Virus record (IMG/VR): IMGVR_UViG_2799112719_000001
Strand: one strand, 5' to 3'
Length of the DNA: 64,000 nucleotides
DNA from: a virus
A model generated the notes under the pieces. That model was not told the origin of the DNA. It made no database searches and saw only the letters and a list, made by a program, of their open reading frames with translations. The translations under genes and the position numbers were made by a program. Positions 15,141 through 38,281 of this stretch are shown piece after piece; within the stretch, counting starts at the first letter, position 1, and each line of letters begins with the position of its first letter.

Positions 15141-15182
15141 TTTGTCCCTACCTTTTTCCGTTCTATCGCTATCTTTGCCAAA
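15136..15182 (+). promoter_or_regulatory. Late promoter copy 2
   Basis: TTTTGTCCCTACCTTTTTCCGTTCTATCGCTATCTTTGC. The -7 box TATCTTTG lies at 15170-15177. Confidence 0.6.
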
Positions 15183-18686: not shown

Positions 18687-19754
18687 ATGCTTATCTCATC
18701 CCCCGAAGAACTGAGGCTTTATTCGCCCTCTAACGCCATCGACAACATCGAGACGATGGCAGGTTTTTTTGATTCGTCTGAGCAGGACTTCCTAAAGGAT
18801 AAACTCGGCGCACAGCTCCATCAGTCGTTGGTGGAATATTATCAGTCATTGCGCGATGGCGAGGGTGCTATTGCGGAGTATATCGGACAGATTGTAGCCG
18901 GTACTCCCCTACCCCCTTACGCCCGTCTGCTGACACTGGCACAGCGTATCATCACCTTTGATGCGCTCGGTCGTGCTATCGACCAGCAGGCTATCAGCGT
19001 CAATGGTGCAGGCATCAATATTGGTGTGGCCGATGACTACCAGAAAGTTGACCCCGCCACCATTGCGGCCTATAAGCAGAGCTGCATCAAGGAGTCTCAC
19101 GCTGCTATCAATGCCTTGCTCGTGACACTCGAAGAGTGGACGCAGGAGGTGAATGCGATCGACCCTGCCACCATTGAGCCAGAAAGCTCTAACGCTGAGA
19201 AAAAGGAGATTACCGATTATTGGCGTACCTCACGCTATTTCTTCCTCGCTGCAAGTCTGGCTATCCCGTCGGCTACCATCCTTCAGGAATATCTCGACAT
19301 CTACGGCTCGCGTGAGAAGTTTATCCTCATGCTGCCTGACCTGCGTTTTATCCAGGAGGATATTCTGACTCCTATCATCGGCGAGGATCTGATGGACTAT
19401 CTCGTTGAAACAGCAACCAAGGGCACTGATGACCGCCTTTTGAAGCGTATCATTCACCGTTTGCGTAAGGCTATGGCCCGTCACCTGGAATCGCGTACCA
19501 TGCAGATAAAAGTGGGAGACCCAAGACGTGAGACGGCACATAACGAGGCCGTGCAGTTGACTTCCGACCTCTCCAGCTACCTGCAAACGCATCAGCCCGA
19601 CATGGAAGGCGACCTGCTGGAAGCCTTTAAGACCTCTCCCCTCTATGTGGCTCCCGCCACTGAGCCTGAAGCATCGGCTTCTGGTGAATACACGCCGGAG
19701 TTTGAAAACAATGCCTCTGGCTCTGTCATGTTTGTAACCCCTGCCCTCGATTAG
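18687..19754 (+). CDS. Hypothetical virion protein (355 aa) with an in-frame palindromic element near the C-terminus
   Basis: First ATG at 18687 (the track start at 18678 is TTG). It contains EPEASASGE, encoded by 19665-19684. Confidence 0.7.
   Translation: MLISSPEELRLYSPSNAIDNIETMAGFFDSSEQDFLKDKLGAQLHQSLVEYYQSLRDGEGAIAEYIGQIVAGTPLPPYARLLTLAQRIITFDALGRAIDQQAISVNGAGINIGVADDYQKVDPATIAAYKQSCIKESHAAINALLVTLEEWTQEVNAIDPATIEPESSNAEKKEITDYWRTSRYFFLAASLAIPSATILQEYLDIYGSREKFILMLPDLRFIQEDILTPIIGEDLMDYLVETATKGTDDRLLKRIIHRLRKAMARHLESRTMQIKVGDPRRETAHNEAVQLTSDLSSYLQTHQPDMEGDLLEAFKTSPLYVAPATEPEASASGEYTPEFENNASGSVMFVTPALD
19665..19684 (+). repeat. In-frame palindromic element, family A (PEASASG)
   Basis: CCTGAAGC ATCG GCTTCTGG. 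8-bp stem with one T:T mismatch. Confidence 0.7.
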
Positions 19755-19756
19755 TT

Positions 19757-20410
19757 ATGACCAGCAATCTCTCTACTATCCTCGAAAAGTGGGCACAGTT
19801 ATACAAGCCCATATCGCATGACCCGAAACGTGGCTCTAAGGATAAGGCATACTACGAAATCAAGACCATCAATCAGGATTCGGAGTTTGTGCGTAATCAG
19901 AACACGGCAAAGTCGCCATGTATGGCCTATTCGGTCCTGGTAGATGCGGAAATGAACTCTACCAAGGTGGTGAACTATCGACACACCGTCTATTTTATGT
20001 CCCGTGCCAAAACGCGCTCGCTGGCTAAGAATGCCAAGCAGGATGATGAGCTGGGCACTGACCAGCAGCTGCTGATGGATGACATGGTGCAGGATCTCAT
20101 TCAGTATCTCCGTGATCTGAAACACTATGGCCGCTGTCCTATCACTGGCGAGACCTACGACACGCCTACGATGCTGTCGCTTCGTGGCCTCTCGCTCGAT
20201 AAATGCGAGTGGGGCAGTCTGCCTGTCAAGTATGCTGAATGGCATTTGATGGAGCTATCCATTGACCAGGACCAGCCACTCCCTGCCATCGGCTGTATCA
20301 ATAAGGAAAAGTATCACCTCCCTGTCTCTGAAGAAACCACTGTGCCCGATGGCTCTCCGTCGGGTGAAACTACCGTTCCTGAAGCACCTGCTTCGGGTGA
20401 TAACCCCTAA
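19757..20410 (+). CDS. Hypothetical protein (217 aa) with two palindromic elements in its C-terminal tail
   Basis: The tail reads TTVPDGSPSGETTVPEAPASGDNP*. Confidence 0.7.
   Translation: MTSNLSTILEKWAQLYKPISHDPKRGSKDKAYYEIKTINQDSEFVRNQNTAKSPCMAYSVLVDAEMNSTKVVNYRHTVYFMSRAKTRSLAKNAKQDDELGTDQQLLMDDMVQDLIQYLRDLKHYGRCPITGETYDTPTMLSLRGLSLDKCEWGSLPVKYAEWHLMELSIDQDQPLPAIGCINKEKYHLPVSEETTVPDGSPSGETTVPEAPASGDNP
20342..20365 (+). repeat. In-frame palindromic element, degenerate (VPDGSPSG)
   Basis: GTG CCCGA TGGCTCTCCG TCGGG T. 5-bp stem with the same GTGCCCG...CGGGT frame as the others. Confidence 0.55.
20375..20398 (+). repeat. In-frame palindromic element, family A (VPEAPASG)
   Basis: GTT CCTGAAGC ACCT GCTTCGGG T. 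8-bp stem with one G:T pair. Confidence 0.7.
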
Positions 20411-20426: not shown

Positions 20427-22967
20427 ATGACAGTCGCCCGTCCATCCGATTATTGGTTTTCATCCAGTGCTCTGTTTGTTCAACTCAATGCCGCTGGTGA
20501 TCGTAACTACATCCATGCTAACTGTTCGTCAGGTAGCATGGTGATGTGCTACATGCGTGGCATCGACGGGCTGGGATTTGATAATGGCCATAACTATCGC
20601 AGATGGACGCTGATAGCGTCGCCTACCGTCTTCCATGATGATGATCCCCGCTATGTCTATATCGCCATCCCAAAGAGCAATGCCGCCGACATTCCCGCAC
20701 AGGTGGTATGGCCGTCTGAAGAGTTGGATATCTACGGATGTAATGAGGGAGGTACACAGGTAGGTTCCACCGATTACTACTACATCTGGACGCGAGGCAT
20801 TATCTCAGCCTCTCGTGTGAATGGTGTGGCACAGGATCGTGTCTGGAGTCAGGTAGTAGATACTGGTACGCTGGCTTCTGATGAAGCGATTGCCAGTGGT
20901 GGTGAAGGCACCTGGTGGGAGTATATCGCTACTACCGACATGGTGAAGTTCCTGAAGACTATCAGTGAGGCTGTATTTGAGAAACTGACGGCATCCTGGG
21001 CCTCTATCACTCAGCTGGTACTTCACGGCCATACCATCAATGGCGTGGCTAATCCTGAGACGGTGGCCGATGCCAATGCCAACGACAAACTGGTGACTCC
21101 TGCTTACGCTAAGACGCAATATCTCTCGCGTACTCACGATGACACCGCAAATGGCGACATCACCTTCAATAACTCCATACTTGTTAAGGGTGAAACGGTG
21201 TTGAAACGCTCTGTCACCATTGGCGATTATGAGAAGGATATTCAGGTAGGCATCGGCTCGCGCACCGGCATGAAGATGCTGCCAGACGGCACCATTATTG
21301 CCCGCTCGTTGGAACTGTCGGAATCGCTGTCGGTACCAACCATCAAATACAACCAGATTGAGGTGCTTTCAGGCACCCGCTGGGACTCTGCCGGTAAGGG
21401 ACGTATCAAGGAGATTATCAGCACCGATGACACTAACCATACATGCCAGTTCGTGCTCGACCTGAACGATGGTGAACCAGGAGAGTTTATAGTGAATGAT
21501 ATCCTGCGTGGCTTCTGGCACAACATGGATGGTACTAAGAATGCCACTACCAACAGCGATGACCGTAAGGGTAATATCCAACGTGCAGGATTCCAGTCTA
21601 TCTACTGCCGCGTAACAGCCGTGGCCAACGTCGTTGAGCGTGTCACCAATGATGTTGTTGAGTATATCGCACAGGATGCGCAATATGTGGCACAGGAAGG
21701 TGATAAGATTCGTGAAAATGGCCTCGTAACGGTGGCCATGCGTCAGTTCAATACGAATCCTGTCACTTGGTCGCCCGCTCCTGAACAGTGGAGTGTGCTG
21801 TCTGTCTCTGGCTTCTTTGGTGTGGATCATCCAGAGCGTCAGAAGTTCTTTATCTATACTACGTCCTATATGGCCCGCTTCGAGGGTGTAAACACATGGG
21901 AATGGGAAGAGCATTGCTTCATGGGTGGCTGGGGTGACTTGACCGGCTTTGCCATGCTGCAACTGGACGAAAACCAACAGGTAGTATATCGTAAGGAGTT
22001 CAACGGCGAGGGCTTCGTCACCAAGGATGCGCATATCTATGGTGTGCTCGACCAGTTTACGCGATTCTCTGACCGTATCGACATCAAACTGTCACGTCCT
22101 GATGGCACCATTGCCGACGGCGAACAGCAACGCGCCGACTTCATCCTGAAGGATGTAGAGGGTAACGTCATTAGCAGTGGCTATACGATGAGCATTACCC
22201 GACAAAGCGGCAATGCGGCTGCTGATACGGCATGGAATCAGGCCATGGCTACACAATACCCCAGCGGCATCCCGTCGGCTCTCTATTTCCAGTTTGCTGA
22301 TGTGCCTGAAGGTGGTGCTGTCTATGTGGTGGCCGCCACACGTCAGGTAAGCGATGGGCAGGGTGGCTATGACACCTATACAACCAGCGCGTCGTTTGTC
22401 CTCTCCCGTGCCTATGCCCAGGAGATTTTCTTAGGAGCGTGGGATGCTGCAACGCTCTATGAGCGCACTCCCCGACTCTACCCCACCGTCACACATAACG
22501 GCTGCAAGTGGTATCTCTATGCTGCCAGTAGTCAGAATAACGAGCCACACCCCACATCGACCTACTGGAAGATGGTGTATGGTGTCAACGACCTTCAGAT
22601 ATGCTTCTACGACCGTGCAGGGCACCGCATCACATCAGCAGCGCAATATCCTGGTGCCGTTAATCTCTATCTCGACCCGCATTTGCTGTGTGGCAACTAT
22701 GACATCACCGACCAGCTGACAGATAGCGATTGGTCGTGGGAGCGTTACACCGGCAATTATGGTGAAGAGACCGACACCCGTAGTGCAGCCGATAAGCAGT
22801 CTGATCAGGGGTGGCCTAATGCCCACTGGCCTGCCATTCCTAAGACTCGTATCATCACGATTACCAACGATGACATGCCCCCGACATGGGGTAGCGGTTC
22901 CATCGTGAACTTTATCGTCACTGCCAGCTATGGATCCCTGACGATTGATAACGCGGTACAAATGTAA
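20427..22967 (+). CDS. Large virion structural protein (846 aa), function unassigned
   Basis: Long uninterrupted ORF in the late operon. No motif recognised. Confidence 0.75.
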   Translation: MTVARPSDYWFSSSALFVQLNAAGDRNYIHANCSSGSMVMCYMRGIDGLGFDNGHNYRRWTLIASPTVFHDDDPRYVYIAIPKSNAADIPAQVVWPSEELDIYGCNEGGTQVGSTDYYYIWTRGIISASRVNGVAQDRVWSQVVDTGTLASDEAIASGGEGTWWEYIATTDMVKFLKTISEAVFEKLTASWASITQLVLHGHTINGVANPETVADANANDKLVTPAYAKTQYLSRTHDDTANGDITFNNSILVKGETVLKRSVTIGDYEKDIQVGIGSRTGMKMLPDGTIIARSLELSESLSVPTIKYNQIEVLSGTRWDSAGKGRIKEIISTDDTNHTCQFVLDLNDGEPGEFIVNDILRGFWHNMDGTKNATTNSDDRKGNIQRAGFQSIYCRVTAVANVVERVTNDVVEYIAQDAQYVAQEGDKIRENGLVTVAMRQFNTNPVTWSPAPEQWSVLSVSGFFGVDHPERQKFFIYTTSYMARFEGVNTWEWEEHCFMGGWGDLTGFAMLQLDENQQVVYRKEFNGEGFVTKDAHIYGVLDQFTRFSDRIDIKLSRPDGTIADGEQQRADFILKDVEGNVISSGYTMSITRQSGNAAADTAWNQAMATQYPSGIPSALYFQFADVPEGGAVYVVAATRQVSDGQGGYDTYTTSASFVLSRAYAQEIFLGAWDAATLYERTPRLYPTVTHNGCKWYLYAASSQNNEPHPTSTYWKMVYGVNDLQICFYDRAGHRITSAAQYPGAVNLYLDPHLLCGNYDITDQLTDSDWSWERYTGNYGEETDTRSAADKQSDQGWPNAHWPAIPKTRIITITNDDMPPTWGSGSIVNFIVTASYGSLTIDNAVQM

Positions 22968-23005
22968 ATTTCGTGTTCATTACCCCCGCTGCAATTCAGC
23001 AGCAA

Positions 23006-23038
23006 AGCCGTGCTACGAGTTGGCATGGCTTTTTTTTG
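23006..23038 (+). terminator. Intrinsic terminator
   Basis: AGCCGTGC...GGCATGGCT imperfect stem followed by T8. Confidence 0.55.
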
Positions 23039-23076
23039 TCCCTACCTTTTCCCCCGTTTCCCCTATATTTGCAGTG
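23031..23076 (+). promoter_or_regulatory. Late promoter copy 3
   Basis: TTTTTTGTCCCTACCTTTTCCCCCGTTTCCCCTATATTTGC. The -7 box TATATTTG lies at 23064-23071. Confidence 0.6.
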
Positions 23077-23130
23077 ATAAAATTTGTTGTTTCATGCTGC
23101 TGTCACAGCGGCCCCTAAAAAATTAAGATT

Positions 23131-23748
23131 ATGACAAGCTCTATTCAAGAACCGTGCTGCATCGAGAACACCCTGCCTCGACTGCTTCGTGAACATGCTC
23201 TCGCCACCTGGCAGACCAATGGCGATGTAACCTTTGACAAGCTGATGAAGGCTGTCGGCTGTCTCGCTGGTGATGCTATCACCGTCATAGTCATCACACC
23301 CTCTATCGACATTGCACATCTGCGTTACCTCCGTTGGTTGCATCAGCGTGGATGGCTGAAGGAACTGAAAGTGCTGACGGCTACCGACCAGGCAGAGTTG
23401 GTAAAGAACGAGCTGCCTGCCGAATTGCCGATGACCATCAGTAACCACACCTCAGTAGTGGAGCCGTTGCTGATTATCACTGGAGAGAAGAAAACGGTGG
23501 TGGTACAGGGTGCCTTGCTCCCCATTGTCACACCTGGCCATTATCAGTATGTCACCTATTGCGGCAATGACCAGGAGCAAATCGACATGCTTACTGCCAG
23601 TGCCCTCTCTCTCCTGCGCACTGCTTCCCGTAAAAAGGATAAGAAGGGCAAGAAAGCCGAAGAAACACCATCTGCTGAAGCCCCCGTGCCCGAAGCATCC
23701 GCTTCGGGTGAAGCTACCGTTTCTGAAGGTGAAAAAACCGCTGAATAA
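23131..23748 (+). CDS. Hypothetical protein (205 aa) with an in-frame palindromic element in its C-terminal tail
   Basis: The tail reads SAEAPVPEASASGEATVSEGEKTAE*. Confidence 0.7.
   Translation: MTSSIQEPCCIENTLPRLLREHALATWQTNGDVTFDKLMKAVGCLAGDAITVIVITPSIDIAHLRYLRWLHQRGWLKELKVLTATDQAELVKNELPAELPMTISNHTSVVEPLLIITGEKKTVVVQGALLPIVTPGHYQYVTYCGNDQEQIDMLTASALSLLRTASRKKDKKGKKAEETPSAEAPVPEASASGEATVSEGEKTAE
23686..23709 (+). repeat. In-frame palindromic element, family A (VPEASASG)
   Basis: GTG CCCGAAGC ATCC GCTTCGGG T. Perfect 8-bp stem. The flanking GAAGCCCCCGT is also shared with the 12090 copy. Confidence 0.8.
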
Positions 23749-24293
23749 TGGCCGTCCAGATAGAAAAGCCCCGTCGCCCCATAAATGTGGTGCTCCGTTC
23801 CTTTGCCCGCCAGTCTGTGCAGGCAATGGAACAGGGCTTTCGTACTCAGCACGTCTGGCCTTATGAGATTTATCCTGGCTTTGCCAAGATAAACGCTATC
23901 CGTAAGGCTCGTGCCATGAGAGGTGGTAAGGATTGGTTTGCTACTGGTGAGGGTTTGAAGTCGTTTCAGTATGAAGTGATGTCTGCCGCACAGGGCAACG
24001 AGACCATCCGTATTGAGTTCAACCACTACCTGCGCTTCGTTGACATGGGTACTGCCGGCGGTAAGCCTATCGAGACGGTGGACCGTGCGCGTAAAGCTCA
24101 TTACAGCCGTCGCTATGTCACGATATGGAGCGCAAGGGATGGTGACACACATCGACCATTCTCTATAATGATGGAAGCCCGCCACCTTGAAGGGCGTATG
24201 CAACGCTATCTCGAAGACTATTACGGACGTGAGGTGAATGCTCAGATCTATCGTACATTTAGCGGCCTCGGTGCCATTGACTTGACCCTGTAG
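23748..24293 (+). CDS. Hypothetical protein (181 aa)
   Basis: TAATG stop/start overlap with the upstream gene. Confidence 0.7.
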   Translation: MAVQIEKPRRPINVVLRSFARQSVQAMEQGFRTQHVWPYEIYPGFAKINAIRKARAMRGGKDWFATGEGLKSFQYEVMSAAQGNETIRIEFNHYLRFVDMGTAGGKPIETVDRARKAHYSRRYVTIWSARDGDTHRPFSIMMEARHLEGRMQRYLEDYYGREVNAQIYRTFSGLGAIDLTL

Positions 24294-24297
24294 TGTG

Positions 24298-24318
24298 CCT
24301 GCTGGTTCTGCCAGCAGG
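24298..24318 (+). terminator. Family-B hairpin without a U-tract (attenuator or processing site?)
   Basis: CCTGCTGG (24298-24305) pairs with CCAGCAGG (24311-24318), immediately after the stop codon. Confidence 0.45.
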
Positions 24319-24348
24319 TACTCATAATAACCAAAAACAATAAGAGTA

Positions 24349-24918
24349 ATGAACATTTTTAAGAAATGGCGTGAATATCGCGCCGCCAAGAGAAAGAAAA
24401 AGGAACTGCGTCAAACCAGCCGAGTATTTGGTCACATTGAACAGTTGACAAAGAGCCACATGCTCATTTGGGAACTGAAAGACCGTCGCCTTTTTATTGC
24501 ACAGCCATTGGCCATGGTCATGCTGTCGCGTGGTGCTGAAGCATGGCGAAACTTCCTGAACAATGTCTATCTGTATCATGTCTTCTGCCTGCAACAGCAG
24601 CAGTGGGATCAGTATGTGCTCGACTTGCAGCGTAAGGCTGTGGCAGAGCGCGTGGCCAGTGGTATCAAGGTGAAGCCAGGCGAACTGGACCGTATTCGTC
24701 GTGCTGTGCGTGACGGCATCAATAAGGATGGTGTGGCACTGCCTCCCATCGAGGCGTTTGATTTCTATATCATTGCCGACAATGCCAGTGGCGACGCACA
24801 GGCTGAGATTACCTTCGTTGGTGAGTATAACCCCGAAACCCGATTGTTTGATATGGCATCCTGGGAGGAAGTGAAAGCTGCCGTTCAAGAGGCCAAAAAG
24901 AATACCGAAAAAGAGTAG
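24349..24918 (+). CDS. Hypothetical protein (189 aa)
   Basis: ORF directly upstream of the ACP gene. Confidence 0.7.
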   Translation: MNIFKKWREYRAAKRKKKELRQTSRVFGHIEQLTKSHMLIWELKDRRLFIAQPLAMVMLSRGAEAWRNFLNNVYLYHVFCLQQQQWDQYVLDLQRKAVAERVASGIKVKPGELDRIRRAVRDGINKDGVALPPIEAFDFYIIADNASGDAQAEITFVGEYNPETRLFDMASWEEVKAAVQEAKKNTEKE

Positions 24919-24923
24919 TGTCT

Positions 24924-25187
24924 ATGACTGAAAATGAATTATTCAATAGAATACTTGACGTGATGGAGGCTCGTTTCGACAACATGCCACCGCGTCATTC
25001 CGTCACTATCGACGATAACTTTGCCGAAGACCTGGACTTGGAATCGCTCGACCTCGTAGATCTGATTATGGGCGTAGAGACCGCCTTTGACATCAAACTC
25101 GACATGGCCGATGCAAAGAACACCAAGACCATTCGTGACCTGATAAACTTTATTCGTGAAGTAAAGCCGGAGTTATGCGCACAGTAA
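24924..25187 (+). CDS. acpP: Acyl carrier protein
   Basis: 87 aa from ATG 24924. DLDLESLDLVDLIMGVETAFDIKL matches the ACP DSL phosphopantetheine-serine helix-II motif. Confidence 0.8.
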   Translation: MTENELFNRILDVMEARFDNMPPRHSVTIDDNFAEDLDLESLDLVDLIMGVETAFDIKLDMADAKNTKTIRDLINFIREVKPELCAQ

Positions 25188-26410
25188 TCACAGGCATGGG
25201 CATCTGGTCGTGCATCGGCGAAGACGTGCATACGGTGGAACAGTCGTTGCGCACTCGTTGTGCCGGCATTGGCACCGACTACCGACGTACAGAATACGGC
25301 TACCAGTCGCCACTCACGGGTATTGTGCTCCGTCCTGACCTGAAGGCAGAGCATTTGAAACGTGCCCAGCGTACCTGCATGGGAGAGCCTGCCGAATATG
25401 CTTACATGGCGGTAAAGCAGACCCTCGCTCAGAGTGGCATCACCGACCTGCATCACTGTGGCCTGATAGTCAGCAATGACAGTACGGCTAATGCCCTGGC
25501 AGAGACAGAGGAAATCATGCAACTGCACCATGACAGCCGTCATTTGGGTGCAGGCATGGTGTTCCGTACATTGAACAGTACCGTGTCAATGTCGCTGGCT
25601 TCCATCTTTGGCATCGGTGGACTGACGCTGACCGTCTCTGCTGCCTGTGCCGGTGGTGGCCATGCCATCGGACTGGCTCACTCGCTCATCAAGAGTGGCA
25701 TCCTTGACTGCTGTATCGTTGTGGGTGCCCAGGAGGTAGGACTACATGCCTACACGTCCTTTGACGCACTCGGTGTATTCAGTCGCCGCACCGATGACCC
25801 AGCAGCGGCCTCACGCCCCTTTGACGTGTCACGCGATGGACTGGTGCCGTCGGGTGGTGCAGCAGCTGTCATCCTTGAAAGTGAAGCCCATTCCGCACAG
25901 GGCTGTCGCCGTCCGATGGCCAGCATCGACGGTTATGGCTTCAGTACGTCACCGAATATCATCAGTCCGTCGGCTGACAGCATTTTCCGCTCAATGACCA
26001 ACGCCCTGAAGGATGCGAATCTCACACCTGCCGACATCGACATGATAGCAGCTCATGCTACCGGCACCCGCGATGGTGACAATGCCGAAGCAGAAGCCAT
26101 CACCTCCCTCTCGCTCTTTGCGCCTGTGCCCGCTGGCACTCCTGCGGGTCCCTACGTCGTAAGTACCAAGTGCTACACAGGCCATGAGTGCTGGATGTCG
26201 GGTGTGTCACAGGTGGTTTATACGCTGATTCAGATGCAGGAGCGTTTCATTGCGCCTCACATCAATCTTACTCAGCCCGATAAGGCTGCTGAACAGTTAC
26301 GCATCCCCACTACCCTTGTAGATAACGTCACCATCCGTCATGCGCTCTGCAATGCCTTTGGCTTTGGTGGCACTAACGCATCACTAATATTGTCACTATG
26401 GAAAGAATAA
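25175..26410 (+). CDS. fabF: Beta-ketoacyl-ACP synthase, KAS I/II (FabF/FabB-like)
   Basis: VSAACAGGGHAIG (active-site Cys), AAHATGT (His), STKCYTGHECWMSG (Lys/His) and NAFGFGGTNASLIL. It overlaps the ACP gene by 13 nt. Confidence 0.85.
   Translation: MRTVITGMGIWSCIGEDVHTVEQSLRTRCAGIGTDYRRTEYGYQSPLTGIVLRPDLKAEHLKRAQRTCMGEPAEYAYMAVKQTLAQSGITDLHHCGLIVSNDSTANALAETEEIMQLHHDSRHLGAGMVFRTLNSTVSMSLASIFGIGGLTLTVSAACAGGGHAIGLAHSLIKSGILDCCIVVGAQEVGLHAYTSFDALGVFSRRTDDPAAASRPFDVSRDGLVPSGGAAAVILESEAHSAQGCRRPMASIDGYGFSTSPNIISPSADSIFRSMTNALKDANLTPADIDMIAAHATGTRDGDNAEAEAITSLSLFAPVPAGTPAGPYVVSTKCYTGHECWMSGVSQVVYTLIQMQERFIAPHINLTQPDKAAEQLRIPTTLVDNVTIRHALCNAFGFGGTNASLILSLWKE
26126..26149 (+). repeat. In-frame palindromic element, family B (VPAGTPAG), inside the KAS gene
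   Basis: GTG CCCGCTGG CACT CCTGCGGG T. 8-bp stem with one mismatch and the same arms as the terminators at 4557 and 15114. Confidence 0.7.
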
Positions 26411-27525
26411 ACCTGCAACTCCCCACCTCTTATAACCGCTGTACGCCGGCACAGCTCCGTGCTATTGCTGCAATCATGGCCGACCGTGGACTGCACACCT
26501 CCCGTCTGCATCCTTACGATCATTTTGAGGTGAAGGTGGCGGTATTCTTCCGACTTACGGGCATAGAGGTGGTGGAGCCTGTCAATCCGCGTGTCAACGT
26601 AGAAGACCAATACTACACATGCCGACAAACGCCCTGGACGCTCGAAGAGGAAAACAGTCGTTGGTTCCGTATGCTACGCTGGTATCGTAGCTTTAAGGCA
26701 TGGTTCCGTCGCTCAGTCCTCGGACATGATGACACCTTTTCGCTCTATCTCTGGCAAATCAACTACTGGCTGACTCCGCATAAGAATCTCATCAATGGAA
26801 AAGACATACCTGGTATGCTCGATTGGCTCGATGCTGACAGCCGTGACCACCTCCTGCGCTTCCCGTTCCCGACGGTGTACCGTCGCCGTCGCTCCAGTTG
26901 GTTCTCTATCGGCAAAAAGGTGGAGTTTCATGGACCGTCACCATTCATGGACGGCTTCATTTGGCGACGCTACCGTTTTGCCCAGGACTACATGCAGGTG
27001 TATGTGGATTGTCACAACGCTTTGCTTCAGATGCAGCAGCAGGGAAATAAGGTATCTGCCGATGACATGCTGAAAGCAGTAAAGAACTACGACCTTGCAA
27101 AAGCAATGTTTCTGGCCGTGCTCTACAACAGTCGTATTACCTATGTCGATGAAGAGACGGGCTGCAAGAAAACGGATTTCCATTATCAGAGCAACCAGCA
27201 TAGCGATAACAGTCCCTATTTCCGTAATTTCCCTGAGTCTGACTTCCAACTCATCCTCCTATGGTGGCAGGGCATGATGCACTTCTTACAGAAAACCTAT
27301 CCCAAGGTGTTCAAGAAAACATCGGTAAAGAGTCCTAAGAAGCCCGTCAATCCGCTGGAACTCTACACCCGCACTACGGCAACAATGGAGAAATACCTGC
27401 ATATCACCGCCTCCGACGTGGACCGCGAACCATACACCACCATTCTCCAGCAGCTCGAAGATATTACCCGTCGTAATGAAGAGATAGAGAAGATGAACGC
27501 AAAAATGAAATCAAGACGCAAATAA
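26398..27525 (+). CDS. Hypothetical protein (375 aa)
   Basis: Overlaps the KAS stop by 13 nt. No motif recognised. Confidence 0.7.
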   Translation: MERINLQLPTSYNRCTPAQLRAIAAIMADRGLHTSRLHPYDHFEVKVAVFFRLTGIEVVEPVNPRVNVEDQYYTCRQTPWTLEEENSRWFRMLRWYRSFKAWFRRSVLGHDDTFSLYLWQINYWLTPHKNLINGKDIPGMLDWLDADSRDHLLRFPFPTVYRRRRSSWFSIGKKVEFHGPSPFMDGFIWRRYRFAQDYMQVYVDCHNALLQMQQQGNKVSADDMLKAVKNYDLAKAMFLAVLYNSRITYVDEETGCKKTDFHYQSNQHSDNSPYFRNFPESDFQLILLWWQGMMHFLQKTYPKVFKKTSVKSPKKPVNPLELYTRTTATMEKYLHITASDVDREPYTTILQQLEDITRRNEEIEKMNAKMKSRRK

Positions 27526-27528
27526 CCT

Positions 27529-27846
27529 ATGCCGACCAGACAACCATCTATCAGTTTTCAATTCCTCCGTAACTACATGGAGAAATTCACCTGGCGCGAT
27601 AAGCGCACAGGGCTGATGACTACTGGCTACAACCCGCCAGCAGGTGCCCAAGACCTCGCTCGTGTTCCCTTTCATGTCCGCTTTGTCACCGGCAAAGGCC
27701 GACGGGAAGAGGGTAATGCCATTTGTCTGAAGGTAGATCGTCGTAAGCACCTTCGTATGATTCAATTTGTAGAGTCAGGAGCCATCCGTTACCTCTACGA
27801 TTTCCTGGTCATCGAAGTGGACGGCACCCGTGTCCTGTCTCATTAA
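27529..27846 (+). CDS. Hypothetical protein (105 aa)
   Basis: Last ORF before a strong terminator. Confidence 0.65.
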   Translation: MPTRQPSISFQFLRNYMEKFTWRDKRTGLMTTGYNPPAGAQDLARVPFHVRFVTGKGRREEGNAICLKVDRRKHLRMIQFVESGAIRYLYDFLVIEVDGTRVLSH

Positions 27847-27858
27847 GGTTTTCTTATA

Positions 27859-27886
27859 GGCCGAGGGTTTGACCTCGGCTTTTTTA
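27859..27886 (+). terminator. Intrinsic terminator ending the late operon
   Basis: GGCCGAGG (27859-27866) pairs with CCTCGGC (27873-27879), then TTTTTT. Confidence 0.8.
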
Positions 27887-27911
27887 CGTTCTTTTTCGTC
27901 TATTTCTAAAA

Positions 27912-27960
27912 TAATTTTGTTTTTTCTTGCATATTTCCCATAAAATTTTTACCTTTGCAC
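27912..27960 (+). promoter_or_regulatory. Bacteroidota-type promoter
   Basis: TTTTG upstream element and a -7 box TACCTTTG at 27950-27957. Confidence 0.55.
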
Positions 27961-27986
27961 CATAATTGAATAAAAAAGTATCTCCT

Positions 27987-28367
27987 ATGTCAGTAAAGAA
28001 ACAAGAATCAAAGGGTAAACTTATTACGAAAGACAAAGAACTGACTCCCGCCTGGTATGTTGCCAAGCGTGTGCTCAACGTCCACAACGTGACCTATAAT
28101 GATATGGCTGAAAAGCTGGGTGTGAGCGTCACCACCGTTCACGATCTCTGTAACTATGCCCCCAATATTGTGCGTGTGAAGCAGATGGCCGATGCTCTCG
28201 GTGTCTCATTCTTCGATTTCTTCGACTTCACGCAGGAGGGCAAAGAGGCCGCTGTGCCTGATGCTAACCTCAATGGTCCCACCGTCCCCTGCTCAAAGGC
28301 TATCATCACCTGTCCTCATTGTGGTGAAACGCTCATCACCTCCCTCTCCCTCTTCCCGAAGTCATAA
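27987..28367 (+). CDS. XRE-family HTH regulator with a C-terminal CxxC zinc-ribbon-like tail
   Basis: MAEKLGVSVTTVHDLCN helix-turn-helix and C-terminal CPHCGE. The N-terminal half resembles the repressor at 61963..62721. Confidence 0.65.
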   Translation: MSVKKQESKGKLITKDKELTPAWYVAKRVLNVHNVTYNDMAEKLGVSVTTVHDLCNYAPNIVRVKQMADALGVSFFDFFDFTQEGKEAAVPDANLNGPTVPCSKAIITCPHCGETLITSLSLFPKS

Positions 28368-28411
28368 TTTCATTGCTTCATTATTTCATTAACTCATAAA
28401 TTCATAAATAT

Positions 28412-28915
28412 ATGAAGAAACTAATTATCTCCTTTCTCCTGATGGCTATTTGCTGTCTCTCTGCATCCGCACAGGTGGAGTTCTCGAAGTTCAAACTGAG
28501 TAAGGATGAGCCATTCGGTGCTTTCCCTGGGCGTAAGATGCTGAACACGAAATTCAAAGTCACTGCTGACCGTGACCTGAAGTATTTGCTCGTTGACTAT
28601 TATATCGTGAATGCTGTTGGTGATGTGATCTCAGGCGCAACAGAGGGTTTCAAGAATGATACACTGGAGTACATCAAACCCAAACGCATGGAGTGTACTG
28701 GTCCTTTCAAGGCTGGTAAGTCGTTTTCTCCTTGGGTTAGTGGTGTTGTCACCTACCCCAACAAAGAAATCACGGCATTCCCGTTCCAGATACAGGTCAT
28801 GTATATGGGCACCGAAGAGTGGATAACGATTCCCATCACAAAAGAAAACCTTGCTACCTATTTCCCATGCCTGCAATGGATGGAGTATAGCCGTAAGAAC
28901 AAAAAGATACTATAA
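28412..28915 (+). CDS. Secreted protein (167 aa)
   Basis: Signal peptide MKKLIISFLLMAICCLSASA|Q (AxA cleavage site). Confidence 0.7.
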   Translation: MKKLIISFLLMAICCLSASAQVEFSKFKLSKDEPFGAFPGRKMLNTKFKVTADRDLKYLLVDYYIVNAVGDVISGATEGFKNDTLEYIKPKRMECTGPFKAGKSFSPWVSGVVTYPNKEITAFPFQIQVMYMGTEEWITIPITKENLATYFPCLQWMEYSRKNKKIL

Positions 28916-29098: not shown

Positions 29099-29556
29099 TT
29101 TTCATTGGGGTTTTGGGAAGATCCCAAATGTTTCCCCAATTCATAGGTCAATCCCAAATGACCTAAACCAAAATACCAACCTTTGTACCAAAATACTAAC
29201 CCTCATAATCAAAAATACCAAGGTTTGTACCAACCTTTGTATCAACTATTGCTTTGTTTCATCAGTTCATATCCTCATTATTTCATCTTTTCATCAGTCC
29301 ATTATTTAATGAATTGATGAAATAATGAATTTTTATTTTTCTCCGCTTTTCTATACTTAATGTTTTGAAAATTAGCAGGTTGCAAAACGGGCACTCCGAA
29401 AGTAGGGTTCCCAAAAATATTCGCAATTTACTGATTTTCAGAGGTACGGCCCAAGAAAAACACCCCTAAACTCACGCGAGACTCGCCGCCACAGTGGAGC
29501 GCAACCTCCACCCCCTACCCCCTGGAGCCGGTGAAATATGCCGGCGGGGTGTGAAG

Positions 29557-29890
29557 CGGTGCCCAGGGTGCCCGCGCTGGTGCGAAGCGGTGACAGTTCC
29601 AGCCAGATCGAGAGCCAGAGACCAGGCGCGAGGGGTCGGCCTGTTATCAGCTGTGTCCGGTGGGCTGCTGGTGTGCTGTCGCTCATCGGTGCGAGATCAT
29701 GCGCCCGCGCTGCTGGTGCTCTTCATGCCTGAAGGGTGCCCAGGGTGCCCGCGCTGGTGCTCACTGTTGCCAGCGGTGGCCGGTGTGCTGGTGCTCATCG
29801 GTGCGAGATCATGCGCCCGCGCTGCTGGTGCTTTTCATGCCTGAAGGGTGCCAGGGGTGCCCGCGCTGGTGCTCCCTGAGTGCCGCCGGC
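29557..29890. repeat. GC-rich tandem repeat: two full 112-bp units plus one partial unit
   Basis: GCTCATCGGTGCGAGATCATGCGCCCGCGCTGCTGGTGCT starts at 29681 and again at 29793. GGGTGCC(C)AGGGTGCCCGCGCTGGTGC occurs at 29557, 29734 and 29846. Confidence 0.8.
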
Positions 29891-29940
29891 TATATTATAT
29901 ATAATGTGTAAACGGCAAAAAATAAGCGAAAACAAAAAAT

Positions 29941-30059
29941 TTTCAAGAAAAAACGAAATTTTTTCGCTTTTTGTTTGGTGGTTTCAAATATTCTTTGTAC
30001 CTTTGCACCAGATAATTAAATAATAACCGCCTCCAGAGAGGCACAAAACATTTAAAGAT
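29941..30059 (+). promoter_or_regulatory. Early promoter/leader copy 1
   Basis: TTTTTTCGCTTTTT block, TTTGGTGGTTTCAAATATTCTTTG, a -7 box TACCTTTG at 29998-30005, leader hairpin GCCTC-CAGA-GAGGC at 30029-30042, then ACAAAACA. Confidence 0.65.
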
Positions 30060-30916: not shown

Positions 30917-33900
30917 ATGAATACTTCAGTAAATACCCCCGCAAACGTGAACACAAACCGAGTAAATAACACCGCCGCCAAGATCGAGGACTTTGGCCAG
31001 AAGATAGGAGGCGCAAGAAAAGACTATTATGCCGAGTGGCGCGAGTTTTCCGAGCGTCTGGCCGGTGTCTCTGTCGATGCCCTGAAAAAATCCGCGCTTT
31101 CTAAGCTGGTGAACCTTCCCGACCTCGCCCGCCTGTTTGCGTCTGGTGCCATCACTGCCGACGCTGCCCGCGCTATTTGGACGCTCTGGCGGTCTGTCGA
31201 TCATCGCCCTGGCCTGGGCTATCGTTTGAACCGATGGGCAGAAGAGACAGCCGCAAAGGTGGCCCAGATCGCCGCAATCATGGCCGGCGAAGAGGTGCCC
31301 GCCAAGCTGCGCGAAAAAACCGATTACCAGGTAATGACCGCCGCAAACTGGCCCGCACAGCCGTTCAGCTTTGGCCGCTTCTCTGTCGAGCGTCCCGACT
31401 GGTTCAGTAGTGAGTGGCGAGTGGTAGCCGGTAGCCGCTATTATAGCCGCTGTGCGAAATTAGAGGAAGTGCCCGCCGCCATCGCTGAAGCCATCGCCAA
31501 AGACTCAGAAGAGCGAGCAAAAGGCCCCGCCCTGGCTGTTTATGTGACACGCGCCGGACAGTATTTTGTGGCCGTTAAAGGTAAGCCGGAAATCTGTTTG
31601 AAAAAGTTTGATGACAGAGCCGCCGCGTACACTGCCGCCCGTGAGGATCGCGCCGCCCTCATTGAGAGATACAACAACCTGCGCACCGTTCCCGCGCTAC
31701 GTCGTGACTGGAACCGCCCCCGCTTGGGTGAGGACTGGCGCAAAGGTGAGAATATGACCCCCGAAGCATTCGCCGCCGCTCTTCCCTTCCGTGGTGTCGA
31801 GTTTGGCAACTGGGTGAACCAGACAGAACGCGCCGCCCTTCTTAACTCAGCTTTTGACGGTTTCCACGATCTCGCCGCCGTCTGGGGCATGAAGCCCGAA
31901 GAAATGACCCTTTGCGGCTCTCTGGCTTTTGCTTTTGCCTCTCGTGGTATTCCTGGAGCAATGGCCCATTATGAGAGCGGCCACGAGGTTATAAATTTAA
32001 CCAAGAAAAGCGGGGCCGGCTGCATGGCTCACGAGTGGTTCCACGCTGCCGACTGGTTCGCAGGCAATGGCCACGCCCAGACAGAGCACCCAACAGACAG
32101 CGACGCAGGCCGCGCCGCTTCTGCCCTGGTTGCTGCCATCAAGAAAACCGACTTTTATAGACGGTCGCAGGAATTAGTGACCTATAGCCCGAAGGGTTCC
32201 TATTGGGTGGAAAATTGCGAGCTTGCCGCCCGTGGTTTTGAAGGTGTTATGCTGGTTTTGTTGGATGCTGCCGGCATCTGTTCCGACTTCCTGGTAAATG
32301 TGAATAGCTGGGACGCTTTCACGGCTGCCGATGTCGAGCACCGCTCCAGCATTTACCCCTATCCGTCAGCCGCTGAAGCTGCCGAGCTGCTGCCCTATTA
32401 TCTGGACTTTTTCCGCGCTGTCTTCGGTGCTCATGTTCAGGTATGCGCCGCCGCTCTGATGGCCGCAGAGCAGGCCACAGAGAAAGCCAACCAGGAGCGA
32501 GCAATAACAGCCGCTAAACGTGAGCGCGAGGCCGCAGAGAAGAAAGCAGCCGAGGAAGCCGAGAGACAGGCCCGCGAGCAGGAGCAACAGAGACAGGAGG
32601 CCGAGCGCGAGGCCAAGGCCGCAGAGATCGCCGCCGTGCTGTCCGATATTCCAGGAGTAACCGCCGCCCGTCGTATGGCTTGCAATGGTGGTGCCCTTGC
32701 TGTGTGTGCTTTATGGGATGCCCAAATTATCACCGTTTTTGCAACTGCCGCAGAAGCTAAGACGATGACCGCCCAGGAGATCGCCGCCCGCGTCTCTGTC
32801 CTGCAATATAAGCGCAAGCCAGCCCGCACAAAAAACCCGATGATCCACGCCCGCGCCCACTCTGTCGAGTTCTGCAAATGGGATGCCGCCGAGTTCCTGG
32901 AGTGGATTGCCAACGGTGCCGGCCTGTCGCGCTTTGCTTGGGAGTTCGCAGAATTGGCCGCCAAGTATGGCCGCCAGCCTGCCGACTTCAGAGCAGAAGC
33001 CGAGAAGATGGCCGCCGACCTTGAAAGCCTGAAGGCTGCACAGGCCCAGAAATGGGCACAGGAGAGCGAGCAGGCCACCGAGCAGACCAACACCAAGGCC
33101 GAGCCGAGAAAAGCCAGCAGAAGCGACGAAAACGCCGCGCCCGCTGAGTGCTTGCAACTGGTCGAGATTGCCAACGGTGTGGCCGTCATTCCTGCCGATG
33201 GTTACGACTACCGCGCTACCCTGTTTAATCGCCGCCAGATTAAGGCGCACGGCTGCCGCTGGAATAAAGACAGCCAGCAATGGGAAGCCACCGCCGTCGC
33301 TGATGTTGCCAACGTCCGCGCATGGTTCGCACAGTCTGCCCCCGCTGCCGATGAGCAGCAGGAGCAGACCCAGGAGCCAGCAGCCGCCGCACCCGTTGCA
33401 GAGACCACCGAGGCCGCGCCTGTTATAGAGTCTGCGAAAAATCAGGCTCCCACCCTCCCCGACTGGCTCCACGTTGGCGCAATGGTCGAGACGATGCCCC
33501 GCACGATGTTAGACTCTCGCTGCCGTCCTGTCGAGGTGCCTGCCGAGGTGCTGAAGGTGACAGCCATCACCGATGAATGGGTAGAAATGCAGAACGAGAA
33601 GAGCTGCGAGAGCGTCAGAATAGAAAATGCGGTTATGTCCCTGCGTCCCTATTATAGTGAGAGTGAGAAATTAGAGCTTTTAGAGTCTGCACTTGCTGCC
33701 GATGAGCAGCAGGAGCAACTCCAGGAGCAGCAGCCGGAACCGTCTCAGGAAAAGCCCGCCCGCGTCTGTCTCTATGACATTGCAACCAATCAGCGCACCC
33801 CAGAATGGCGCACGAGTTTTGCAGACATGCAGATCGCCCAGGAGTGGCTACAACGCGCCATGAATGGCACAGGAGCACTGGCCGCCGATGCTGTTGACGT

Positions 33901-34375
33901 TATAGACGTTAATCCCTATTGGGGTGTATATTATAGCCATAGAAATAAAGAATATATATGTCTGTTTCTTGTGGCTGAGAATGAGAAGCCGGAATATCGC
34001 GCCGAGGAATTGCGCCACAGGCTTACAGAAGGCCGTGAGCGTCATATCTGTGCCCGACTGGAGAAAGCTATCACAGAGGCAACAGAAAGCGGCCACGCCT
34101 ATATTATAGAGGTCGATGGAGATTGCAGTCGCTTAGTGATTGAGCCAGACCCACGCCACCCCAACGCCCTGCGCTGGACGTGGTACGAGGGTGCCGAAGT
34201 CGATGAGCGACACACCGAGCAGACAGCCGCGCAATGTGCCTCTATTGCCTACACATTCCGCGAGGGTCACGCCTTAGAGTTAGGACTCCAGACCACCACG
34301 CCCAAGGCCGTGAACTTTGCCGACTACTCAGATCTGCCGGTCGTGCCACTTCAAAAAGTGGCCGCCGCTGGCTGA
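30917..34375 (+). CDS. Large polyvalent-type protein with a zincin-like HExxH metallopeptidase module (1152 aa)
   Basis: RGVEFGNWVNQTERAALL...AMAHYESGHEVINLTKKSGAGCMAHEWFHAADW (HExxH), then an Ala/Glu-rich coiled coil. About two-thirds GC in sampled lines. Confidence 0.6.
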   Translation: MNTSVNTPANVNTNRVNNTAAKIEDFGQKIGGARKDYYAEWREFSERLAGVSVDALKKSALSKLVNLPDLARLFASGAITADAARAIWTLWRSVDHRPGLGYRLNRWAEETAAKVAQIAAIMAGEEVPAKLREKTDYQVMTAANWPAQPFSFGRFSVERPDWFSSEWRVVAGSRYYSRCAKLEEVPAAIAEAIAKDSEERAKGPALAVYVTRAGQYFVAVKGKPEICLKKFDDRAAAYTAAREDRAALIERYNNLRTVPALRRDWNRPRLGEDWRKGENMTPEAFAAALPFRGVEFGNWVNQTERAALLNSAFDGFHDLAAVWGMKPEEMTLCGSLAFAFASRGIPGAMAHYESGHEVINLTKKSGAGCMAHEWFHAADWFAGNGHAQTEHPTDSDAGRAASALVAAIKKTDFYRRSQELVTYSPKGSYWVENCELAARGFEGVMLVLLDAAGICSDFLVNVNSWDAFTAADVEHRSSIYPYPSAAEAAELLPYYLDFFRAVFGAHVQVCAAALMAAEQATEKANQERAITAAKREREAAEKKAAEEAERQAREQEQQRQEAEREAKAAEIAAVLSDIPGVTAARRMACNGGALAVCALWDAQIITVFATAAEAKTMTAQEIAARVSVLQYKRKPARTKNPMIHARAHSVEFCKWDAAEFLEWIANGAGLSRFAWEFAELAAKYGRQPADFRAEAEKMAADLESLKAAQAQKWAQESEQATEQTNTKAEPRKASRSDENAAPAECLQLVEIANGVAVIPADGYDYRATLFNRRQIKAHGCRWNKDSQQWEATAVADVANVRAWFAQSAPAADEQQEQTQEPAAAAPVAETTEAAPVIESAKNQAPTLPDWLHVGAMVETMPRTMLDSRCRPVEVPAEVLKVTAITDEWVEMQNEKSCESVRIENAVMSLRPYYSESEKLELLESALAADEQQEQLQEQQPEPSQEKPARVCLYDIATNQRTPEWRTSFADMQIAQEWLQRAMNGTGALAADAVDVIDVNPYWGVYYSHRNKEYICLFLVAENEKPEYRAEELRHRLTEGRERHICARLEKAITEATESGHAYIIEVDGDCSRLVIEPDPRHPNALRWTWYEGAEVDERHTEQTAAQCASIAYTFREGHALELGLQTTTPKAVNFADYSDLPVVPLQKVAAAG

Positions 34376-34435: not shown

Positions 34436-34502
34436 CGCCCCACCCTCTTTATAGAACATCTGAAAATTCACAGTTTTCATAAATTCATAAATTCATTAAG
34501 TC

Positions 34503-34748
34503 ATGGTTATCATTAATGGTCATAAGCTCTATGAGGTGCCTTCATCGTGTGGAACATGCCCGTTCCTTCTGACTGGCAACACCGATTGCCCTGGTGTAGG
34601 TTCTGGATATAGCAAAGGCATTTGCCTCCAGTGGGATGAAACACACCACACCTGGGCACACATCCCCAGACGTTGTGAAAAGCTCTTCAAGCAGGCTTTT
34701 GCCCTATACGATGACAGCGGCATGGATTTAGTAATCACTAAGAAATAA
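34503..34748 (+). CDS. Cys-rich small protein (81 aa)
   Basis: SSCGTCPF...DCPG...GICLQ...RRCEK. Preceded by the TTCATAAATTCATAAATTCATTAAG element. Confidence 0.6.
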   Translation: MVIINGHKLYEVPSSCGTCPFLLTGNTDCPGVGSGYSKGICLQWDETHHTWAHIPRRCEKLFKQAFALYDDSGMDLVITKK

Positions 34749-35059: not shown

Positions 35060-35335
35060 ATGACAACGAGCGAAGTTTTTGGTTTGATCAAGCGACTTTA
35101 TTCAGGTTGTGGCATTGCCGAGCCAGTTGTGCGCCATGAGCATACGAATCGTTTTGGCGATACGTTGGTAGAAGTTGAGCACCCCTATCGCAGTAAGTAT
35201 CTCCAGATAGTCTATAATGGTGAGCAGATAAAAGGCCCTATCCTTGACTGTTGGATAAATCCTAACTATCTGTGTCGTTACAACTCTTCCAGTGAGATAG
35301 CAAACATTGAGCAGCTTCAGAAGTGGGCTGCATAA
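35060..35335 (+). CDS. Hypothetical small protein (91 aa)
   Basis: Preceded by the TTCATTAATTCATTAAG element. Confidence 0.6.
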   Translation: MTTSEVFGLIKRLYSGCGIAEPVVRHEHTNRFGDTLVEVEHPYRSKYLQIVYNGEQIKGPILDCWINPNYLCRYNSSSEIANIEQLQKWAA

Positions 35336-35387
35336 ACTCACCACTTCATTAATTCATCAAGTTATTAATTCATTAAAATATAAGATT

Positions 35388-37910: not shown

Positions 37911-37937
37911 TTCATTAACTCATTAATTCATCAAGTT

Positions 37938-38252: not shown

Positions 38253-38281
38253 ATTCATTAATTCATAAATTCATTACGACT

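Follow-up and report, generated by a model that had tools for sequence, protein, structure and literature searches.

Organisation of the locus

This study concerns two adjacent genes of a tailed phage, one for an acyl carrier protein (ACP) and one for a beta-ketoacyl-ACP synthase (KS). They were examined in the IMG/VR virus record IMGVR_UViG_2799112719_000001, and the whole stretch of 64,000 nucleotides that was analysed is called the window here. Both genes belong to an operon of seven genes (23131-27846), whose open reading frames (ORFs) and bordering signals are as follows.

23004-23032, plus strand: terminator-like hairpin at the end of the preceding tail-protein gene (20427-22967), with a 12-bp stem followed by a T-run
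23027-23072, plus strand: copy 3 of a late-type promoter unit (TTTTG, a C-rich spacer, then TATATTTGC), a member of a 46-nt repeat family
23131-23748, plus strand: ORF of 205 aa that opens the operon, without a Pfam, PHROG or NCBIfam match
23748-24293, plus strand: ORF of 181 aa, without a family match in Pfam, PHROG or NCBIfam
24349-24918, plus strand: ORF of 189 aa, modelled by AlphaFold2 as a helical hairpin with a small beta-sheet (predicted local distance difference test score, pLDDT, 86.9)
24924-25187, plus strand: ACP of 87 aa, pI 4.2, matching PF00550 (E=3.9e-9)
25175-26410, plus strand: KS of KAS I-like type, 411 aa, with the motif TGHECWMSG, matching PF00109 and PF02801
26398-27525, plus strand: ORF of 375 aa, a conserved phage protein (AlphaFold2 pLDDT 89.3, predicted template modelling score 0.82)
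27529-27846, plus strand: ORF of 105 aa, basic (pI 10.3), which closes the operon, without a Pfam, PHROG or NCBIfam match
27858-27881, plus strand: terminator-like hairpin at the operon end, with a 9-bp stem (6 GC pairs) followed by a T-run

In the raw junction sequence, the ORF at 24349 stops at a TAG at 24916-24918. The ACP could start at GTG 24918 (89 aa) or at ATG 24924 (87 aa), and the alignment of 87-aa relatives favours the latter. The KS start codon (ATG 25175) lies ahead of the ACP stop (TAA 25185-25187), giving an overlap of 13 nt, and the same length of overlap joins the KS stop (TAA 26408-26410) to the ATG of the next ORF at 26398. The ORF list and the junction sequences thus agree with an initial annotation of this DNA, which had described the 13-nt ACP/KS overlap and the translational coupling of the two genes to each other and to their neighbours. 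That both genes are real is further supported by their domain matches, catalytic residues and purifying selection.

Copies of the promoter-like unit were located with a repeat finder and regular expressions. Three copies of 46 nt were found in the window (4575-4620, 15133-15178 and 23027-23072; 74-91% identical), each standing after a hairpin, and a fourth precedes the tape-measure gene on L257, a contig of the same lineage. The unit heads four operons, namely those of the tape-measure protein, of two large late-block ORFs (2036 aa and 614 aa) and of the ACP/KS pair. It ends at its 3' side in TAnnTTTG, which we take to be the Bacteroides -7 consensus. The repeat and hairpin evidence supports the proposed co-transcription of the pair from a promoter unit common to the tail operons, up to the terminator at 27858-27881, and the sharing of this unit suggests that the ACP/KS operon would be expressed late.

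The acyl carrier protein

The ACP matched the Pfam PP-binding family (PF00550) with 37.1 bits, above the cut-off of 20.8, and scored 63.7 bits against the NCBIfam ACP subfamily, the cut-off of which is 66. Among 100 ACP matches in the PDB the closest was a Thermus ACP (1x3o, 6.5e-11), and a match to phrog_5934, annotated as acyl carrier protein, was also obtained (5.7e-8). The phosphopantetheine serine is Ser43 when counted from the GTG; it aligned with the serine of AcpP and was invariant in 10 aligned ACPs. The initial annotation had reported an intact DSL motif. The serine is indeed intact, but the motif reads L-E-S-L-D rather than literally D-S-L, and E-S-[IL] was present in 63 of the 70 ACPs of the phage family. 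The acidic helix-II region is also retained. The ACP is thus predicted to be a modifiable carrier, and its phosphopantetheinylation to the holo form would need a host enzyme, since no phosphopantetheinyl transferase (PPTase) was found in the window. A C-terminal Cys that is conserved in phage ACPs was considered as a functional residue and rejected; it is confined to lineages with the ACP ahead of the KS, where the overlap with the KS start codon (A/TGn) produces it.

The ketosynthase

Both KS domains are present (ketoacyl-synt, PF00109, 2e-25; Ketoacyl-synt_C, PF02801, 1.1e-20). When aligned to FabB and FabF of E. coli K-12, the phage enzyme displayed Cys158, His294, His337, Lys332, Thr296/298, Asp302, Glu305 and FGFGGTN; F395/F397 aligned to both enzymes, and the FabB set C163, H298, H333, K328 and F392, the last being the gating Phe, was matched. 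The complete Cys-His-His triad and the GFGGTN motif that had been described for this protein were therefore recovered by alignment to FabB and FabF. Taken together, the KS and the ACP are, at the enzyme level, a solid prediction of a catalytically complete elongating KS with a modifiable carrier.

The closer assignment to FabF/FabB was not upheld. Over its full length the KS was 32% identical to E. coli FabB and 29% identical to FabF. FabB was the top curated model, though the score fell below its cut-off: the KS reached 255.3 bits against the FabB equivalog (NCBIfam NF005935, cut-off 630) and 212.4 bits against the FabF equivalog (TIGR03150, cut-off 493.75). The best PDB matches were also FabB-type enzymes (4xox, 9.7e-58, 199 bits), and no PHROG family was significant (best E=0.0033). 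The clade to which the KS belongs is marked by TGHECWM after the second histidine, with N-D-S replacing the GSGGG loop of FabB and GHECWM replacing GHSLGAAG. Judged by its scores, far under both equivalog cut-offs, and by its place in a virus-only clade next to a clade of pigment-lipid KS, the enzyme is neither FabB nor FabF of the housekeeping type. No second KS-like ORF was present in the window, and hence no heterodimer of KS-alpha and chain-length factor (CLF), as in a minimal type II polyketide synthase (PKS).

Conservation among viruses

IMG/VR was scanned with the clade alignment, and a KS of the GHECWM type was encoded on 249 viral contigs; 80 loci were kept, from which 73 full-length viral KS were extracted. 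The catalytic Cys, His, His, Lys, Thr, Asp, Glu and Phe were invariant in 74 of 74 viral KS, which ranged from 39 to 99% identity to the window enzyme, so the KS does not group with inactive homologues. The survey of co-occurrence in related phages gave a clear result, with an ACP adjacent to the KS in 69 of the 73 contigs (10 upstream, 59 downstream). By tblastn, the ACP-KS pair was detected in every related locus that was long enough, with identities of 58-71% for the KS and 47-57% for the ACP. As every relative that was examined carried the pair, even where KS identity was as low as 39%, and phage genes stood on both sides, absence from relatives and host-like flanks, either of which would have spoken for passenger DNA, were not found.

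Between the KS of the window and that of a 98-99% relative, 20 synonymous and 4 non-synonymous differences were counted (dN/dS 0.06), and the ACP gave a dN/dS of 0.10 against a close relative. On these ratios, the ACP and KS are functional genes under purifying selection. Their position among phage genes, conservation across relatives and purifying selection are those of auxiliary metabolic genes.

Many of the related IMG/VR contigs are 80-110 kb in length, and the exact KS sequence was also found on a 104,187-bp ENA contig. One relative (L016, 90,283 bp) forms a contig of its own within the genome assembly of an isolate, Prevotella sp. MGM1, and the same contig is also a UViG. The carriers form a large family of ~100-kb tailed phages of Prevotella-like gut and rumen bacteria. 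Megablast of positions 23000-28000 against 50,697 phage records gave no relatives, and tblastn of the KS gave a 46% match on a 6.8-kb faecal contig, the other matches (25-34%) resembling host-derived fab genes. Among PLSDB plasmids, only cellular-type Bacteroidota enzymes and FabB were obtained.

Ancestry of the ketosynthase

A search of 1.8 billion representative proteins yielded about a dozen KS clusters at 43-63% identity, after which came a drop to FabB-like proteins at ~40% and to type I PKS domains. One genome per prokaryotic species was scanned with the clade motifs, and 80 of more than 600 matches were kept. Essentially all 80 cellular KS were from Bacteroidota (two record titles name no taxon), carried the GHECWM motif and were 45-49% identical to the phage enzyme; they came from Flavobacterium, Chitinophaga, Prevotella, Muribaculaceae, Alistipes and Barnesiella, among others.

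In the cellular loci inspected, a FabG-like ketoreductase (KR) gene stood immediately upstream of the KS, and many loci had ACP and KS/CLF-like genes downstream. By Pfam, a Flavobacterium locus comprised an aromatic amino-acid lyase (TAL), KR, KS, ACP, a LipA-type acyltransferase, a 4HBT thioesterase, a KS and a KS/CLF, and a Prevotellaceae locus comprised KR, KS, an O-methyltransferase, ACP, an acyltransferase, a thioesterase, KS, ACP and KS-CLF. The flexirubin cluster encodes a tyrosine ammonia-lyase (flxA), the reductase FlxB and the ketosynthase FlxC (PMC3992019), and in aryl-polyene (APE) clusters the FabB-like homodimeric ketosynthase ApeR is encoded beside the reductase gene apeQ (PMC8358021). 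The architecture of the cellular loci matches both the flxA-flxB-flxC and the ApeQ-ApeR arrangement.

In neighbour-joining (NJ) trees, all viral KS fell into one clade, including a distant group and a few from contigs of 160-175 kb, and this clade was sister to the cellular Bacteroidota clade. The window KS was thus sister to, and not nested in, the clade of the FlxC/ApeR position, with which it shares GHECWM and NDS at 45-49% identity; NJ support was modest. The bootstrap value of the cellular clade (6%) was set aside, as this criterion was too strict with two unnamed representatives inside the clade, and the topology and the value of the viral clade (~55%) were used. The signature motif reads TGHECWMSG in viral and TGHECWMAG in cellular enzymes. 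Phylogenetic placement, which the initial annotation had suggested as a check, therefore yielded a virus-only clade, and in place of FabF/FabB orthology a sister group from aryl-polyene/flexirubin clusters. The viral clade is probably sister to the KS that follow a ketoreductase in these Bacteroidota clusters (the FlxC/ApeR position), and the simplest history, likewise probable and not proven, would be one old capture from the aryl-polyene/flexirubin pathway followed by divergence in phages.

Genomic context of the pair

The 846-aa protein encoded ahead of the operon (20427-22967) matches proteins annotated as tail or tail fibre in Bacteroides, Porphyromonas and crAss-like phages. Tail proteins of phrog_5302 and phrog_3267 are encoded upstream of the window, an Amidase_3 endolysin-like gene and a holin-family ORF lie within it, and replication genes and a 1,880-aa PhageMin_Tail tape-measure protein follow downstream.

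In five relatives (L004, L005, L007, L010 and L016) the pair stands directly after an ORF of 1,741-1,941 aa, which is a homologue of the tape-measure protein (52-62% identity). The tape-measure gene was located from 17781 onward on L257, at 4487-9712 on L004, at 3840-9644 on L005 and at 2380-8163 on L016. It follows the replication genes in the lineage of the window and lies upstream of ACP-KS in the five relatives, and by this difference the tail module has undergone rearrangement between lineages. The order in the closer relatives is tape-measure, ACP, KS. In the distant group, the KS comes before the ACP, and the two stand between homologues of the window ORFs w12466 (47%) and w17047 (35-40%), on the KS and the ACP side, respectively. 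The pair has thus moved and the order within it has flipped, yet it lies inside the tail/late structural block in every lineage whose neighbours were compared.

The neighbouring ORFs of the operon also have relatives near the tape-measure gene. A 60% homologue of the ORF at 23131 lies two genes upstream of it in L004 and L010, homologues of the ORF at 23748 (51-53%) lie immediately upstream of it in L005, L006 and L007, and the ORF at 24349, with 24 homologues, all without names, adjoins it in L004 and L010. The ORF at 26398 has 260 homologues. It adjoins the KS in the window and in L016 is separated from ACP-KS, on the upstream side, by a distance of two genes, but was ~12-40 kb from the KS in other members of the family (~40 kb in IMGVR_UViG_3300026549_000055); with such distances it was rejected as an obligate partner of the KS.

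Partner enzymes

Family and ORF scans of the window detected no PPTase, FabD-type transacylase, short-chain dehydrogenase/reductase (SDR), hot-dog dehydratase or thioesterase. Of the gene context of an aryl-polyene/flexirubin cluster, neither KR, dehydratase (DH), KS-CLF, thioesterase (TE), acyltransferases nor exporter was found in the operon or the window. The other ORFs of the operon had no Pfam, PHROG or NCBIfam family. The AlphaFold2 model of the ORF at 26398 gave no PDB fold match (best E=0.2), and in BFVD it matched uncharacterised Caudovirales proteins, with weak matches to tail assembly chaperone and baseplate proteins; the model of the ORF at 24349 gave no PDB fold match at E<0.1. 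A fold check on these two flanking ORFs thus detected no acyltransferase or thioesterase fold in either model, and with confident models that match no solved fold, both were rejected as acyltransferases or thioesterases.

The scan of the remaining ORFs of the window returned ParA, YopX, the holin family, DUF6712 and one GNAT signal. The last is probably the 118-aa ORF at 52134-52490 (minus strand) in the early region, which has an RQQGIG motif and weak PDB matches to acetyltransferases. This GNAT-like ORF is the sole signal of an acyl-CoA-type transferase in the window. The earlier statement that the window has no acyltransferase, reductase, dehydratase or PPTase therefore stands for the last three and needs amending for the acyltransferase.

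Possible function of the pair

The explanation that we tentatively favour, with a probability of roughly 45%, is that the pair is expressed late and, in dependence on the host, acts as a condensing module that draws malonyl units off onto an ACP of its own. The steps are modelled on the known chemistry of KAS I/II enzymes. Late in infection, the host PPTase would convert the phage apo-ACP to holo-ACP, which host FabD would load with malonate. The KS, presumably a homodimer like FabB and ApeR, would be acylated at Cys158 by a host thioester, conceivably with a short chain or, in view of the descent of the enzyme, with an aryl- or enoyl-type chain as primer. Decarboxylative Claisen condensation of primer and malonyl-ACP would then leave a beta-ketoacyl chain on the phage ACP. 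Reduction and dehydration would be carried out by type II enzymes of the host, either those of fatty acid synthesis (FAS) or the host's own putative aryl-polyene/flexirubin KR and DH, and an enoyl reductase (ER) of the host would also be needed for further processing. The net effect would be an entry or booster step under phage control, by which host malonyl units go to a product that is bound to the ACP and belongs among envelope lipids or pigments, and not to bulk fatty acid.

Dependence on the host is proposed because no PPTase, FabD, KR, DH or TE was found in the window and because the ACP, with its pI of 4.2, retains an acidic helix-II region. The ancestry of the KS and the clade-specific residues near its pocket favour substrates like those of FlxC/ApeR enzymes, that is, aryl or enoyl chains for outer-membrane pigment lipids, over bulk saturated fatty acids. 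ApeR is reported to be a fast producer of short polyenes and to raise the throughput of its pathway (PMC8358021). By analogy, the phage KS with its own ACP could boost or redirect an aryl-polyene/flexirubin-type pathway.

Several points weigh against this explanation. All genes except those for condensation are missing, so that the product cannot be derived from the genes, and ~21 kb of genome, from the downstream tape-measure gene to the genes upstream of the window, fell outside the scan and could hold partners. The trees are NJ only, with a bootstrap of ~55% for the viral clade. The KS is nearer to solved FabB (4xox, 199 bits) than to 4EWG (127 bits), a proteobacterial ApeR homologue (PMC8358021). 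Because the FabB structures match better, the proposed ancestry in a pigment pathway is drawn from the Bacteroidota clade and its gene context, and not from a characterised ApeR. Lastly, the pair keeps to the tail module, a hint of a role linked to the virion, which a condensing module does not address.

The best structural matches, to FabB and FabF, with FabB as the top curated model and an ACP most like those of FAS, would suit a simpler role as ordinary auxiliary metabolic genes, in which the pair adds elongating capacity to the type II FAS of the host and keeps up phospholipid or lipid A synthesis late in infection, when host gene expression collapses. Sets of fabG-acpP-fabF genes have been reported in predicted Rhodobacteraceae prophages (PMC8224337), which also fits. 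This role is nonetheless unlikely in view of scores far beneath the FabB/FabF equivalog cut-offs, and of nearest cellular relatives that reside in pigment-lipid clusters and not in fab operons. The replacement of GSGGG by NDS and of GHSLGAAG by GHECWM in the pocket region suggests a non-standard substrate. Host ACP is abundant in cells, and a private ACP would be needless for boosting FAS.

A role in the virion is a more doubtful alternative, in which an acyl chain would be passed to the tape-measure protein, a tail-tip protein or another part of the tail, or the KS and ACP would take part in tail assembly or be ejected with the tail contents. Either version would account for the embedding of the pair among tail genes wherever neighbours were compared: five lineages have it directly behind the tape-measure gene, the distant group has it flanked by homologues of two late-block ORFs, and its promoter unit is common to the tail operons. 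For the acylation of a virion or lysis protein, put forward in the initial annotation as inference, the constant location in the tail module was the one pertinent observation. The homologues of the ORFs at 23131, 23748 and 24349 lie upstream of the tape-measure gene in relatives, which is the usual site of tail chaperones, and the ORF at 26398 has its weak fold matches among tail assembly chaperone and baseplate proteins. However, no protein acyltransferase fold was found in the ORFs at 24349 or 26398, and sites after tail genes are also common insertion points of accessory genes, so that location is weak evidence. Lipidation of a phage tail protein by way of acyl-ACP would, to our knowledge, be without precedent. 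The narrower version, in which the KS and ACP build a phage-specific acyl or polyene chain for the tail that lipidates the tape-measure or tail-tip protein or acts as a cofactor of assembly or ejection, is slightly more doubtful again; such a chain would account for the persistence of the pair among the tail genes despite its changed position and gene order.

The gene content is also that of a minimal type II system without a CLF, and the KS probably descends from a pigment pathway that resembles a type II PKS, so that KS, ACP and host FabD might carry out iterative, non-reduced condensation to a short beta-keto or pyrone signal or antagonist. This is improbable, as neither CLF, cyclase, thioesterase nor exporter was found and related ApeR-type KS work with KR and DH partners (PMC8358021). 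Finally, a slightly higher GC content of the pair (0.543, against 0.495 in the late region) might point to recent passenger DNA, host contamination or a decayed pseudo-enzyme, which is refuted by the 249 viral contigs with monophyletic viral sequences, the phage genes on both flanks, the invariant catalytic residues and the dN/dS of 0.06-0.10.

The retention of an intact KS and carrier across a family of abundant gut and rumen Bacteroidota phages implies a function that is selectable during infection. If the pair feeds host outer-membrane lipids of the aryl-polyene/flexirubin type, it would be a new phage route to envelope remodelling; a role in the virion would instead mean a novel form of virion biochemistry, with a tailed phage making its own lipid moiety. 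The relative in cultured Prevotella sp. MGM1 makes the role open to experiment.

Other features of the window

A diversity-generating retroelement (DGR) lies at the start of the window, with a 119-nt template repeat (412-530) upstream of a reverse transcriptase gene (796-2142). The variable repeat is at 9105-9223 of contig L011, which is at or just before the window start. The template repeat and the 3' end of a gene for a 415-aa tail protein (phrog_5302) share 85% identity and differ mostly at template adenines, a pattern that is consistent with a DGR targeting this tail protein.

Many genes in the non-structural region, on either strand, have tandem repeats of 8-nt period (TTCATnAA) directly ahead of the start codon. 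Arrays were located at 28354-28424, 29243-29345, 34461-34515, 35330-35400, 37888-37950, 38247-38301, 39935-39997, 41612-41674 and 42524-42602, and the reverse-complement form at 47805, 49420, 50365, 55151 and 57119; in the late region the repeat occurs only once, before the amidase gene (10999-11064). These arrays could serve regulator binding or translation control. A promoter-like family of another kind than the late unit (TTTG ... TAccTTTGCA) was found at 27920-27962, 29927-30012, 37045-37130 and 39499-39584, where it heads a helix-turn-helix (HTH) regulator gene and several early/middle genes. GC-rich tandem repeats of ~100-112 nt, with copies 93% identical, occupy 29558-29885 in an AT-richer stretch of intergenic sequence and small ORFs.

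A 30-nt coding repeat (approximately APVPEASASG) occurs at 12084-12113, 19656-19685, 20336-20398, 23680-23709 and 63169-63198, mostly in late proteins and often near the C-terminus, with 73-93% DNA identity, and may encode a shared linker, processing site or targeting motif. A surface-loop insertion in the KS (26120-26149) was considered as a further copy, but with 70% similarity and a loop that varies in relatives, the resemblance was taken as chance.

Plasmid-like maintenance genes are also present, including ParA (42650-43513), a weak Rep3_C match (44328-45797), a 570-aa protein with a HicA-like N-terminus (57155-58867) and an HTH gene (27966-28367). Together with the occurrence of L016 as a separate contig in the Prevotella sp. 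MGM1 genome, these suggest a phage-plasmid lifestyle. A polyvalent-type protein of 1152 aa with LPD5 and LPD1 domains (30917-34375) is followed by a DUF4942/methyltransferase-like ORF of 532 aa (35307-36905); polyvalent-type proteins are typical of those that mobile elements deliver early. A 289-aa ORF on the minus strand (46463-47332) matches the PHROG family of radical SAM domain proteins (2e-84) and had no Pfam match at 1e-3.

Comparison with known systems

No description of a phage-encoded KS/ACP pair in Bacteroidota phages was found in the searchable literature, and the pair appears to be an undescribed case, in which the enzymes are familiar but their conserved viral setting is new. Phages rarely carry auxiliary genes for lipid chemistry, and most reports concern single genes or doubtful prophage edges.

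The closest resemblance is to the FlxC/ApeR ketosynthases and the ACPs of their clusters (PMC3992019; PMC8358021), which likewise combine a FabB-like standalone KS, a Cys-His-His triad and a small ACP partner, and in Bacteroidota also GHECWM and NDS. Unlike these clusters, the phage has no KR, DH, KS-CLF, starter-activating ligase or lyase, thioesterase, LipA-type acyltransferases or exporter, and its two genes are directly adjacent, in the order ACP-KS in the lineage of the window and KS-ACP in the distant group. With E. coli FabB/FabF and AcpP the phage proteins share the fold and the catalytic residues, the ACP being 26% identical to AcpP with the serine aligned; they differ in the KS score, which lies under the equivalog thresholds, in the motifs of the pocket region and in the lack of a fab operon. 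A minimal type II PKS is similar in having only a KS and a dedicated ACP and in relying on the malonyl-CoA:ACP transacylase and PPTase of the host, whereas the phage has no CLF gene and its KS is of the homodimeric KAS I type and not a KS-alpha.

ACP genes, sometimes with a KS, are known from phage or prophage DNA, where they are regarded as auxiliary metabolic genes (phrog_5934; PMC8224337). The fabG-acpP-fabF sets of Rhodobacteraceae prophages keep the host operon order and lie in predicted prophage regions (PMC8224337). In contrast to such earlier phage fab sets, the KS of the window belongs to a viral clade of its own, of probable aryl-polyene/flexirubin lineage, and is fixed in the tail module of its phage family.

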